DNA of 64,000 nucleotides, from IMG/VR virus record IMGVR_UViG_642979322_000011, one strand, 5' to 3'. The position numbers were made by a program. Source of the DNA: a virus. Taxonomy: Duplodnaviria > Heunggongvirae > Uroviricota > Caudoviricetes. Of this stretch, positions 54,001-63,000 are shown piece after piece (the stretch's first letter is position 1; every line of letters starts with the position of its first letter).

Positions 54001-57000
54001 CGAAGCAGCAGGGACTTTCTCTGAAAGAGCTTCAGAAGGGGGCCAGCAACGTAGCGGCGGACGCGATCAAGAATGGCGGTAATGCTCAGGCTGCGGTGGA
54101 TGAATATTATGCTGCGACTGGTTCACAACCGCATCAACAGAAAATTCAGCAACAAAAACTTCAGCAACAGGTTATCAACTGGGCGGGAGATGATCCTGAT
54201 AAGCTGTCATTTGCCAGAAATGTAGCGGCCCGTCAGCCTGAAATGCTGGAACCTCAGAATCAGAAATTGCTGGAGAACGGGTATGCGAATTTTCTCCGTA
54301 TTCAAAAGGCCAGGGGGGAACAGGCCAGAGATGAAAGTGCTTCATCTGCATCTCAGTTTATCCGTGGACTGAAACAGAATTACGCCCAGTAATTCACGAT
54401 ATTCCATTAATACCATTTCCTGATGCCCGGCCATTGTGCCGGGTTTTTTTATGGAGTCTGTATGGCCTATTCAGAGGAACAGCGTCCTGAGGCGCAACTC
54501 GGTAACCAGAATCGTAACAGCCTGAACATTCAGCAACCCGGCGAAACTGACAGCTATGAAGCATTTTTCTCTGATCCGAATCGCTGGAAGGATAACAGTA
54601 CGTCGTTCAGCCTGGGCGATGTATTGCCAACAATGGGTAAAGGTTTCGCCCAGTCCGTCCGGGGAACAGGGGAAATGGCCCGTGGACTCGGTGATGCGAT
54701 GATTCAGAGCCCGGTAAAAACAGGGGCGCGTATTTTAAATGAGTTCAGCCGTATGGGGCTGCCGGGTGTCGCAACTGTGCAGGATATTTTTGCCGGTGGC
54801 AGCAGGGGGGCTGATGAGGTCATCGATACCCTGCCTGATGGCAAAAACGCGGTTACTGATACTGTCGGTAAAGGTCTGAAGGCAACCGGTAAGGCTGTCA
54901 GTGATGGTGCCAAAGCCACTGATGAATGGCTGACCGGTAAGATGTCGCCGGGTGCAGTTCGTGCGCTGAATACGCCGATGACCGAAGGCTATAATGATTC
55001 TGCGGTCTGGGTGGCGAAGGGTGTAAACCTGATTGGTGCGCTTGTACCTGATATGGTTGCTGGCGGTGTGGCTAGAAAGGTGGGTGATGTCACACTGCGA
55101 AAAATGCTGACCGCCGGGCTGGAGAAAAAATACATCGCGGCAGGGATGCAGCCGGAAAGAGCCACGGCACTGGCAGCAGAAGCTGTCGATAAAAAAATGC
55201 CGGATTTATTCCAGGCGGGCCTGATCACCCATTCCACTGTAAGTGCACAGGGGCAGAGTGCAATGGCGGCAGCAGATGCTGTTCTTAATGCTGATTACTC
55301 TGAGCTGGCGCAGTCACCGAAATTTCAGCAGACGTTTTTGTCCATTGACGCCGACCCGCAGCACGCACAGCTTACTGATCGCCAGAAAATGGATCTGGCA
55401 AAAGAGCGTGTTGCCGATGAGGTGCGCGCGCAGCTGGCAACCGATCCTGAATTGCTGGCTGTGAATGCCATGGCGGCAAAACTGGGTGACGCACAACTGT
55501 TTAATCTGGTGACACGAGGCACAGCGAAGACCGTTAAAAGCGGCATTGTCAGAAATGCCACGGAACAGGGGGCGATTAATGCGGCGCAGGGCGGCTATTC
55601 ACGCTATCAGGAAAACACGGCATTGCGTGAGACCGCCGGAATGGGTGTGTCACCGTGGGAGGGCGTGGCTGACGCAACGATCGAAGGTGCAGCCTTTGGT
55701 GCTGCGATGGGGGCTCCATTCGGTGCGGTTGCCGGATATCGTGGCAGACGTCAGGCCGCAGAAGAAACCGCCATGCGTGATGCTGAAACCGTGCAGCAGG
55801 ACGACGCAGCCCCGCAACCAGAATCTGTTGATCCGGTGGCGCAGCAGCGTGAATCCATGCAGGGCATGAATCGCGAGCAGCTTCTGGAGCAGTATGCTGA
55901 TGCGGATATGGCAACAGAGGGTGACGCATCCGCAGCTCATCGCCGGGAAGCTGCCAGCCAGTTGTTGAATGAACTGGACGAACAGACGAAGCGACAGGCT
56001 GTGATGAATGAGCTGAAGGCGAAGCCGCGTTCTGAACTGCTTGAGGAATACCGCAGACTCAGCCAGAAAGAGGGGCGCACCGAGACTGAAGAACAACAGT
56101 TTCAGGCAATACGAGAAGTCATTCGCCCACAACAGGAAGTGACGCCGGAAGCACAGTCACAGCCTGAAAATGCGGAGGATGGTAACGGGAGCATTTACCC
56201 GACGGTGCGGTTCCGGGACCCGAATGAAGTCCGCATTGAAATTAACGGGAATGGTGCGTCCAGACCAGCGGAACGCATTGAGAAGGTGCGCCCGGACAAC
56301 CGTTATTTCACGGATGAGAAAAGCGCCATGGGGAGTGATGTTTTCCGTAATGCCGCCGCCACCGGCCTGAAACCGTCCGTAGTGAAGAAAGGCGAGAATC
56401 AGTATGCCGTTGAAATGGATAATCCTGCGTTCTCTGAAGATGTGGCAACGGAAACCATTAACACCCTGGCTGACGGAGAGCGTATTGCTGATGCTGACCC
56501 GATGGAGCAGCCCGCGTTCATGCGTGACCCGCGATTCCGTGGTTTCACGGGGGATGATACGGAGGTACAGGCCCGCCTTGCCCGTGGCAACGCGCCGACG
56601 GCAGAGGAGCTTGTACGTTCACAGATGGCTGAAGGTGATGCCGGTCCGACAGCACAGGAGTTAACTGAGCGTCCACGCCTGCCCGCTCCCGGCGATATTC
56701 ATCCCGGACAGGGATATCCGTTACCGGGAGAAGTGGCGCGTACGCCGGATGAAAATCAGGCCGGACGTGGTGGTCGTTTTACCACAACCGGTGAGGTTAA
56801 GGGCCAGAGTTTCCAGAAAGGACAAGCTCCGGCACCGGAAAACGCCGCTGGTCGCCAGGGGGAAACACTCGAGGGTGACATGGTTCGTCGTGGTCTGCCG
56901 TCACCGGATGCGCAGAACGCGACAGCACCGGTACGTGAAGGGCTACCGGCTCCTGACATTGCGCGTAATGTTCGTATGCCTCAGCCTGAATCACTTCCCC

Positions 57001-60000: not shown

Positions 60001-63000
60001 ACCCTCAGTACAGTGGGCTTCAATTGCCCAAAGAGGAGCGTTCTTATCGCGGCTCTGTAGATAAAATACTCTATCCTGAAGATATTCGCAATGGGCCGTA
60101 TTACTCCCGTACCAGCAGTCTGACACCGGAAGAGACAATTGCATCGCGTTTTGTGCGTCAGATGCAGGATAAATTCCAGGTGCTGAAAGCTGTTCAGGAG
60201 AACATCCGTAAAACTGGCGGAAAAATAGACGACAGTAACAACGCTTATATGGCGGAAGAACTCTTCCACGGGAAGGCGGAAAACGACCTGAACGTGATGA
60301 AGGAGCGCTACGTTCAGCCACTGGCTAAATTACTGGCGGACTACAAAATTGCGCAGGCCGATCTGGATGAGTACCTCTACGCCCGTCACGCGCCGGAACG
60401 TAACGCGCATATCGCGAAAATCAACCCGAAAATGCCGGACGGCGGTTCGGGGATGACCAACGCGGAAGCGGCGGAAATCATGCAGCGTGTACGTAACAGT
60501 GGCAAACAGGCACAGTATGACCGTCTGGCAGGGATTATTGACGATATGCTGGCCCGTCGCCGTGAGCTTATCCGTCAGGCCGGACTTGAAGAGAACGGTG
60601 TGGTGGATGCCTGGCAGAACGCCTACCGTTACTACGTTCCCCTGAAAGGTCAGGATGTTGACGGTGTGGTGTCACTGCCCCGTACAGGTAAGGGCTTCAC
60701 CATCGGCGGACGTGAAAGCAGGCAGGCCATGGGGCGTGCATCCCGGGCACAGTCTCCGTCCACTCAGGCGATACAGGACCTGAGCGAATCGCTGATCCGC
60801 CATCGCAAAAACGAAGTGGGTAACGCCTTCCTGAAACTGGTGCAGGATAATCCCGACAAGGATTACTGGCAGGTATTCACCGATGACAGACCGGATACCA
60901 TGCGGACGATTGCAGAGCGCAAGGACCAGGAAACTGGTGAAACCATTCGCGAAGTTGTCGAACGCCCTGTACCGATGGCAATGATGGCAGACCGGTACTT
61001 CACCACCAAAAAGAACGGCAAAACGTACTACATCAAACTCCATGATCCGCGCCTGATGCGTGCGATGAAGAATATGGGACCGGAAACCAGTAACGCCGTA
61101 ATCCGCACGCTGGGGAAAGTTAACCGCTTCCTGGCAACGGTGAACACGTCGTATAACCCGGAATTCCTGGTCAGTAACTTCATCCGTGACGTGCAGACGG
61201 CGGTGATGAACCTGAAGGCGGAGCAGGGAAGGAGCGACGGTAAACTGAAAGGGCTGGATAACTTATCCGCCCTGGCTGTGGTGAAAGACAGCCGTTCTGC
61301 CATGTCAGCCGTATACGCCAGTCTGCGTGGTAAAACCCTCACGGGAAAAGGTGCACAGTGGCAGAAGGTGTGGAAAGAGTTTGTTGAGGACGGAGGGAAA
61401 ACCGGCTGGTTTAACATGGGTGACCTTGAAGGCCAGCAGAAGGAAATGGATCGCCTTGTCTCACTGGCGAAGGGGGGATGGAAAGGCCAGAGTATCGGTG
61501 CATGGAATTCGTTCCTTAACCTTGTCGAGGATGCCAACGGTGCGGTTGAAAACGCTCTGCGTCTTTCTGCCTATAAGCACGCCCGTGATACCGGTTTGTC
61601 ACGCCAGCAGGCGGCGTCTCTTGCCAAAAACATGACGGTGAACTTTAACCGTCGTGGTGAGCAGGGGGCGCTGATGAATTCGCTGTACATGTTCGCCAAC
61701 GCCAGCATTCAGGGAACGGCAAATCTGGTGAGAACGCTCGGACATCTTAATGGTGAGGGACCTTTACTGGAGCGCCTTCGCTGGAAGAATCTGAATGTTC
61801 CGCAGAAAATCGCGCTTGCCGCTGTGGGAGCAGGTTATCTGCTTGGCTCGCTTAACCGCAGCGTGGCGGGTGAGGATGATGACGGGGTTAACTGGTATGA
61901 CAAGGTGCCGTCTCATGTGAAAGAGCGTAACCTCGTCATTATGAAATCGGTGTTCGGGGGCAAGGCCGGAGAGTACTGGAGTATTCCTCTGCCTTACGGG
62001 TACAACGTTTTCTTCCTGCTCGGGCATACTGCTGAAGGTGTGGCGGCGGGTGACCTGACGGCGTCCCGTGCTGCCGGTAATGTTGTTGGTGGTGTGCTTG
62101 GTGCATTCAGCCCGATTGGCAGTGAGACGTCGGAAACACTGTCCGGGGCATTGCTGAAAAATGCAGCGCCGACCATTCTGCGTCCGTTTGCGAACCTTGC
62201 CATGAATGAAAACTTCATGGGGGCGCAGATTTACCAGGAGAACATGCCGTTTGGTACACCAAAACCTGACAGCCAGCTGGGAAGACGTTCAACGCCAGAA
62301 GCGTACAAGGCGTTTGCATCCTGGCTGAATGCGTTCTCTGGTGGCAGCCAGTACCGTCCCGGCGCGGTGGATATCACACCGGAATCGCTGAAATACTGGG
62401 TGGACTATATCTCCGGAGGGACAGGGCGCTTCATTTCCAAAACCACGGATGCGGCGGTGAAATCGCTGAATGGTATTGATATACCGGAGCAGCAGGTGCC
62501 CTTCCTGGGGAAAATTTCAGGTGAGGTGATGCCGTATGCTGACCAGCAGAAGATGTACGACCGGATGACAGAGGTTGCGCAGTATCACGCAGAGCTGAAG
62601 AGTCTGACCGGTGCAGAAAGAACGGCGTTCATTGACGAGAACAACGGAAAATTGTCGATGAACGGGCTTATGCAGGATACCCGGAAGAGACTGAAGGATT
62701 TGCGTAAACAGCGTGATGCCATTTACGCCGACAGTACTCTCAGTCTGGCGCAACAGTCGGCGATGGTGAAATCGGTTGAGCGGGATATGAAAATTGCCGT
62801 GGATCGGTTTAACCGCGAGTACAACAAAAAAGTGGGAGTGGAGTAAAGAACATGCCCCGTACGGAAGTGCGGGGCATGCTTAACGGGATGTGTACATAAA
62901 TGGGTACTGATATGACGATTATTTCGGTGCTTTCTGTATTTAAATTAATGAGTTAATACTTGTATTCATTATATCCATTTAACTAAGAGGACAATGCGGC

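Follow-up and report, generated by a model that had tools for sequence, protein, structure and literature searches.

The stretch of DNA analyzed here (the window, 64,000 nucleotides (nt) in full; IMG/VR record IMGVR_UViG_642979322_000011, Caudoviricetes) is a Shiga toxin (Stx) 2a prophage which carries stx2A and stx2B, the gene of the Q antiterminator, and those of the terminase, the portal and an N4-gp56-type capsid protein. The prophage occupies argW, with the attL repeat lying inside the tRNA-Arg(CCT) gene, and is bounded by a 27-bp direct repeat (attL 1794-1820, attR 62966-62992; 26/27 identical). The present work deals with a giant open reading frame (ORF) located at 54462..62846 on the + strand, as are all the features described below within it. 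This gene closes the late structural block and also the prophage itself, attR beginning 120 nt 3' of its stop codon and being followed by the host gene yfdC, starting at 63068.

The giant ORF encodes a protein of 2794 amino acids (aa; 308 kDa, isoelectric point 8.5) from an ATG at 54462, with a GGAG located 8 nt 5' of it, to a stop codon at 62844-62846. Identical coordinates are given in RefSeq for WP_000331689.1 (“LPD38 domain-containing protein”, E. coli O157:H7 M1300706002), in agreement with the initial annotation of this DNA, which had also correctly placed this 8.4-kb ORF at the end of the virion block next to attR. An alternative ATG at 54423 leads to a 2807-aa reading; this codon falls within a terminator-like hairpin (54425-54444, + strand; 7-bp stem with 6 GC pairs, followed by seven T) and is therefore probably the source of the 2806- and 2811-aa versions present in older annotations. 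Late transcription would have to pass through this hairpin, which separates the ORF79 homologue from the giant ORF, presumably via Q antitermination.

The deduced protein contains no cysteine. It is rich in alanine and glycine between aa 100 and 500 (14-24 Ala and 7-14 Gly per 100 aa), and a polar linker of low complexity, in which E, Q, R and P abound, spans aa ~461-889 (55842..57128), with a partial conservation restricted to close relatives. Both traits had been noticed in the initial annotation, which overstated the hydrophobicity of the N-terminus: the latter is only moderately hydrophobic, the best mean Kyte-Doolittle value over 19 aa being 1.38 (aa 182-200). The two HExxH motifs which it had set around aa 1290 and 1560 are present, their exact positions being aa 1284-1288 for HEWFH (58311..58325) and aa 1551-1555 for HEIIH (59112..59126). 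Only 0.03 such motifs would be expected by chance from the composition of the protein (35 His, 202 Glu).

Identity with a described protein of Stx phages

Over its full length, the giant ORF is 98.6-98.7% identical at the DNA level to its counterparts in phi24B, VT2-Sakai and 184 further Stx-phage records, and PHROG 616 matches its product from end to end. It is the orthologue of ORF80 of Sp5/VT2-Sakai (ECs1242) and of gp47 of phi24B, the VT2-Sakai counterpart being also recorded as orf71 (NP_050570, “LPD5 domain-containing protein” in RefSeq). Sp5 ORF80 and phi24B gp47 are the same protein encoded at the same place, as the last gene of the late operon, with no biological difference; the copy studied here belongs to an argW prophage whose end lies 120 nt past the gene. 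The giant protein has already been reported in the literature and annotated in RefSeq, and its finding in this window is mostly known.

Two published studies bear directly on its function. Deletion of ORF80 from Sp5 leads to the loss of plaques and of lysogenization, while excision, DNA packaging and head shape remain normal (PMC5155283). In phi24B, gp47 was detected in purified virions by mass spectrometry, where it was called abundant, and is missing from the cryo-electron microscopy map, leading the authors to propose it as an ejection protein (10.64898/2026.04.10.717836).

Domain composition

Four Pfam domains are recognized in the giant protein, all well over the cut-offs: LPD5 (aa 1051-1200, E 6.5e-45), LPD1 (aa 1361-1440, E 1e-23), MuF_C (aa 1748-1839, E 9.4e-18) and LPD38 (aa 2477-2682, E 8.1e-49). 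These domains were defined by Iyer et al. (2017) for polyvalent proteins, LPD38 being confined to those of phage type, which are large and virion-associated and combine zincin hub domains, PBECR/MuF-C ribonucleases (RNases) and LPD domains (PMC5512222). The giant protein likewise gathers several unrelated effector or LPD domains and two predicted zincins on a single 2794-aa polypeptide, and its packaging as the product of a virion gene is supported by the late-block position and the published phi24B proteomics, so that the polyvalent nature put forward in the initial annotation is borne out. It can also be compared with DarB/DdrB of P1 and with Mu F and SPP1 gp7, which are packaged in the capsid and delivered with DNA; DdrB has a zincin, MuF has a C-terminal PBECR domain, and PHROG 10089, “DarB-like antirestriction”, matches aa 2352-2682 of the giant protein (E 3e-25). 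In contrast to these proteins, no methyltransferase, helicase, ParB or MuF head-binding domain was found in the giant protein with Pfam.

Other searches added little to this picture. The whole protein had no match at E <= 1 in a sequence search of the PDB, and PADLOC recognized no defence system. No Pfam peptidase family was found at either HExxH region in a scan of eight sub-segments at E <= 10, beyond a faint match to Peptidase_M76 (E 0.19) at the second motif.

The first HExxH domain

The first motif belongs to a domain of CLCA_X type (zincin 1; aa 1182-1440, 58005..58781) that extends over the end of LPD5, an unannotated gap and the whole of LPD1. With the NCBIfam model CLCA_X (NF041907), aa 1182-1437 align to positions 3-245, or 243 out of 250 (E 2.1e-43), and the score of 148.6 bits is lower than the 260-bit cut-off set for the free-standing subfamily of about 250 aa. 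From this match, zincin 1 is homologous to the CLCA_X family and stands outside its curated free-standing subfamily. In an alignment with 60 diverse homologues, for the most part free-standing LPD5 and LPD1 proteins of 470-650 aa, seven residues are invariant among the 61 sequences (H1263, H1284, E1285, H1288, D1291, E1375 and E1382). The CLCA_X match and these invariant residues indicate that what Pfam reports as an LPD5 tail, a gap and LPD1 would form one peptidase domain, whose division among these three parts left the peptidase unlabelled. In the predicted fold, the HExxH helix follows a three-stranded sheet and the third ligand is borne by a later helix, as in zincins.

CLCA_X was described by Lenart et al. 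(2013) as a zincin-like family frequent on phages and plasmids, and their supplement lists it at residues 1195-1467 of a 2806-aa protein of VT2phi_272 (PMC3650047). This protein is near-identical to the giant protein and the listed region corresponds to zincin 1. The family, which occurs on mobile elements, has a conserved Asp after its HExxH motif, found here as HEWFHSLD with the invariant D1291. Zincin 1 also fits the phage peptidase clade of Iyer et al., in which strand 2 ends with a conserved His and the third residue past HExxH is an Asp (PMC5512222). The subfamily to which the NF041907 cut-off applies is free-standing, whereas zincin 1 is embedded in a giant protein.

The region preceding zincin 1 (aa ~890-1181, 57129..58004) constitutes the upstream part of the “LPD5” module, the modelled portion of which (aa 1040-1175) is a beta-rich subdomain. 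The N-terminal consensus of the free-standing 470-650-aa LPD5+LPD1 proteins resembles the giant protein from aa ~893 onward, and from this resemblance, judged by eye, aa ~890-1450 may represent one such module. Such free-standing proteins, which comprise the CLCA_X-type zincin, occur commonly both in metagenomes and in the genomes of bacteria.

The second HExxH domain

The second motif lies in a domain (zincin 2; aa ~1470-1690, 58869..59531) which represents a family without Pfam match, including when ten of its short free-standing members were submitted to Pfam, none of which gave a relevant match. A word-index search retrieved 25 relatives, and an exhaustive HMMER search 378, mostly proteins of 1500-6000 aa. 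Among 139 aligned stretches, H1551 is conserved at 99% and E1552, H1555 and E1607 at 100%. For aa 1450-1740, an AlphaFold2 model derived from 27 sequences (mean predicted local distance difference test score 74, near 90 in the core, model residues 20-165) displays three strands, the helix of the HExxH motif and, further on, a helix bearing E1607, an arrangement expected for a zincin.

Both HExxH motifs are consequently located in predicted zinc-protease folds, and the structural neighbours of the two domains are zincins that cleave proteins, namely MtfA, the Pro-Pro endopeptidases, lethal factor, ArdC and Spartan. The initial annotation had considered the two motifs as candidate zincin-like sites, and the search for a location of either of them in a non-peptidase fold gave no ground to abandon this proposal.

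The MuF-C domain

A MuF-C/PBECR domain (aa ~1720-1870, 59619..60071) follows zincin 2 and is predicted to be a metal-independent RNase of the BECR fold. In the sub-segment scan, it matches PF18819 with an E of 1e-19. According to Iyer et al., MuF-C corresponds to PBECR, an RNase of the BECR fold that needs no metal and whose first helix carries a His and a late strand a Ser or Thr (PMC5512222). Among 32 MuF-C sequences, H1752 is conserved at 97% and S1816 at 100%; we would place the former in this helix and the latter in this strand, and their conservation suggests that the predicted active configuration of the RNase is present. The phi24B preprint considers MuF-C as a metallopeptidase, possibly degrading peptidoglycan (10.64898/2026.04.10.717836). 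Contrary to this proposal, the candidate metallopeptidases of the giant protein would be the two HExxH domains, MuF-C being a predicted RNase.

A conserved frame and its relation to the N4 virion RNA polymerase

The giant protein starts with a conserved Ala/Gly-rich domain (N-domain; aa ~100-460, 54759..55841) which includes two moderately hydrophobic Gly/Ala segments (aa 182-200 and 407-425) and weak Gly-zipper matches at aa 406-433. Its core (aa 259-419, 55236..55718) is related to aa 296-438 of gp50, the virion RNA polymerase (vRNAP) of phage N4. An N-domain profile of 44 sequences aligned to gp50 with an hhalign probability of 96% (E 4.1e-9) and a score of 74.6, to be compared with 16.3 +/- 2.2 for block-shuffled controls and 20.4 for the reversed sequence, i.e. 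about 26 standard deviations over the shuffles. A one-sequence search with hmmsearch gave an E of 8e-9, the score being only 21 bits and the bias term large; PHROG 2206, “virion RNA polymerase”, matches the N-domain with an E of 0.005. These profile comparisons make the N-domain a homologue of the N-terminal domain by which the N4 vRNAP binds membranes. The similarity is not apparent with BLASTP, which returned nothing significant between the giant protein and gp50. The Pfam domains of the N4 polymerase match gp50 and not the giant protein, in which no T7-like RNA polymerase module is recognized by this means, and the genes upstream of the giant ORF have no BLAST similarity with N4 gp51-gp58.

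At the other end, a C-terminal module (aa ~1880-2794, 60099..62843) contains LPD38. When compared to 123 related giant proteins, the N-domain is found no more than ~110 residues away from the N-terminus in all the 46 relatives that have it, and the C-terminal module ends at the C-terminus or within ~65 residues of it in 40 of the 43 relatives that have this module. Zincin 2 directly abuts the C-terminal module in 26 of these 43, while in the giant protein a ~200-aa insert with MuF-C lies between them. The cargo in the middle is variable: one relative (P0144) has two MuF_C and neither LPD5 nor LPD1, another (P0169) has a weak methyltransferase match. These comparisons point to a recurrent frame made of the N-domain, a variable cargo, a zincin and the C-terminal module.

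In N4, the N-terminal domain of gp50 binds lipids and enters nanodiscs, and is followed by a low-complexity linker of ~100 residues; gp50 is an ejected protein made of flexibly linked domains, proposed to behave as “beads on a string”, and its C-terminal domain, which acts as an autoinhibitor, comprises an HExxH subdomain (C1) and then a large helical one (C2) (PMC13434306, PMC13492108). The giant protein has in common with gp50 a low-complexity linker after the N-domain and an HExxH domain before a large C-terminal region. In both cases the gene ends the structural block of a phage with an N4-gp56-type capsid protein, and the packaged giant protein is invisible in virion maps. They differ by their cargo, an RNA polymerase in gp50 and predicted peptidases and RNase in the giant protein. 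The Stx phage, which is temperate, presumably depends on the host RNA polymerase for the transcription of its early genes, unlike N4.

Proposed function and alternative explanations

Taken together, these results make it probable that the gene encodes a giant virion-packaged polyvalent protein of short-tailed Stx phages, ejected with an enzymatic cargo. The initial annotation had likened it to the large ejected proteins of short-tailed phages, and this comparison is now supported by the phi24B proteomics, the phenotype of the Sp5 deletion and the homology of the N-domain to the N4 vRNAP. The 308-kDa protein would be made late and loaded into the capsid, where the phi24B orthologue was found, possibly through the conserved C-terminal module, which is a guess. 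After receptor binding, by analogy with the N4 vRNAP, it could be expelled through the tail ahead of the DNA or with it, its domains being loosely joined by disordered linkers. The N-domain may then associate with the inner membrane or with the ejection conduit, a role suggested by its homology, and the middle part would deliver into the cell a cargo consisting, from sequence and fold prediction, of the CLCA_X-type zincin, the second zincin and the PBECR (MuF-C) RNase. The zincins most likely cut protein rather than peptidoglycan; their likeliest substrates would be either host proteins or the giant polyprotein itself, in which a cut would free the cargo from the parts tethered to the membrane or located at the C-terminus. 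Zincin 2, owing to its fixed position before the C-terminal module, is favoured as the processing protease at the junction with this module. Ejection, membrane tethering, all the enzymatic activities and self-cleavage are inferred.

A broader proposal, which we regard as tentative and put at slightly less than an even chance, is that the giant protein and the N4 vRNAP are two forms of one ancient protein-ejection frame, used by a temperate toxin-carrying phage to inject peptidase and RNase effectors of ~300 kDa instead of a polymerase, with zincin 2 freeing the cargo from the C-terminal module after entry.

Several observations weigh against this interpretation. The proteolytic activity, the binding of zinc and the processing of the giant protein are predictions from sequence and models, and the fold assignment of zincin 2 is good but weaker than that of zincin 1, since Foldseek retrieved nothing significant for its model against the PDB (best match MATCAP, E 0.12). 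No strong transmembrane helix supports an insertion of the N-terminus, all 19-aa windows having a Kyte-Doolittle mean below 1.4, which weakens the idea of such a helix in the giant protein. The relationship with the C-terminal half of gp50 is not as clear as that of the N-domain: a 139-sequence profile of zincin 2 aligned to N4 C1 with a probability of 38% (E 3e-4, score 32.7 against 13.0 +/- 2.0 for shuffles), which is suggestive only, a 27-sequence profile reached 6% with the HExxH region of N4, and the C-terminal module gave a probability of at most 4% with C2, taken as a single sequence or as a 75-sequence N4-like profile, and no HMMER match. The N4 vRNAP, of all characterized proteins the nearest analogue, has an HExxH domain and is nevertheless packaged unprocessed (PMC13434306, PMC13492108), so that autoprocessing of the giant protein is not a given. 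Finally, Sp5 particles devoid of ORF80 are not bound by anti-tail-fibre antibodies (PMC5155283), a loss that a pure cargo model leaves unexplained and that suggests an involvement in the assembly or stability of the tail.

The last two observations are also those which favour the best surviving alternative, in which the HExxH domains have no catalytic activity and serve as structural or regulatory modules, autoinhibitory or involved in packaging as the C-terminal domain of the N4 vRNAP could suggest, and the essential role of the protein is structural, in tail assembly or in an internal core. The precedent of N4, where an HExxH domain is kept in an unprocessed protein with an autoinhibitory C-terminal domain, and the absence of detectable tail fibre on Sp5 particles without ORF80 are in line with it. 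We nonetheless consider it unlikely in view of the invariance or near-invariance of the predicted metal ligands and of the catalytic Glu among 61 and 139 diverse relatives, a conservation not easily accounted for unless the domains are catalytic or, at the least, bind metal.

An activity that degrades the cell wall, such as that of the T7 gp16 transglycosylase domain, is often ejected by short-tailed phages. The metallopeptidase domains of the giant protein might in the same way digest peptidoglycan for the ejected conduit to cross the periplasm, a role proposed by the phi24B authors for their MuF-C metallopeptidase (10.64898/2026.04.10.717836). This is improbable, because MuF-C is a predicted BECR-fold RNase domain and no peptidase, the HExxH domains resemble protein-cleaving zincins, and no lysozyme, transglycosylase or amidase domain was found in the giant protein with Pfam, its sub-segment scans or NCBIfam. 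Moreover, the known peptidoglycan metallopeptidases (M23, M15, LAS fold) use motifs and folds other than those of the HExxH domains.

A non-peptidase metalloenzyme nature of one or both HExxH domains, for example as HExxH oxygenases dependent on alpha-ketoglutarate, has very little probability, since peptidases rank higher and dominate the two lists of structural neighbours, and the CLCA_X profile match and the gluzincin-like downstream Glu fit peptidases. The remaining alternative, an AAA+ ATPase driving a step of tail assembly, stems from the COG1483 match and the tail-assembly phenotype reported for Sp5 ORF80 by Mondal et al. (PMC5155283), and can be practically dismissed: neither GxxxxGK[ST] nor [AG]xxxxGK[ST] occurs anywhere in the giant protein, which has no Walker A P-loop, and no ATPase family of Pfam or NCBIfam matches it, leading us to reject this label.

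Other features of the prophage

The tail-fibre gene of the prophage (43362-45300) is the homologue of the essential ORF67 of Sp5 (orf58 of VT2-Sakai). It is 100% identical to the VT2-Sakai gene apart from one additional base in a poly-A run near 43755, which breaks it into ORFs of 149 and 522 aa, the N-terminal fragment being recorded in RefSeq as an incomplete pseudogene. This extra base may mean that the prophage forms no infectious particles, or may be a homopolymer sequencing error. The same gene contains a collagen-like (Gly-X-Y) repeat DNA at 44372-45045, with a 77-nt unit in six diverged copies.

In the early region, a type II restriction-modification pair, composed of a BsuBI/PstI-family endonuclease and an Eco57I-type methylase, adjoins a LexA-family (CI-type) repressor (~17263-19682, - strand; coordinates mapped from RefSeq). 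This region also displays a 300-nt direct repeat (5740-6039 and 14535-14834; 78% identity, 8.8 kb apart). A perfect 9-bp tandem repeat of about ten copies is located at 4162-4260 (GCTGCACTG).

Conclusions

With regard to a protein that was for the most part already described, this analysis assigns the predicted peptidase function to the two HExxH domains rather than to MuF-C, characterizes a second zincin family including its fixed position beside the C-terminal module, removes the ATPase label and brings out the homology of the N-terminal domain to the N4 vRNAP. The giant protein is essential for the infectivity of Stx phages, by which Shiga toxin genes are spread among E. coli. Knowing its real enzyme domains provides targets for mutagenesis (E1285, E1552, H1752 and S1816), and such mutants would show the delivery of the 308-kDa protein and its effect on the newly infected cell, while the N-terminal homology supplies, with the N4 vRNAP, a well-studied model for the ejection step.

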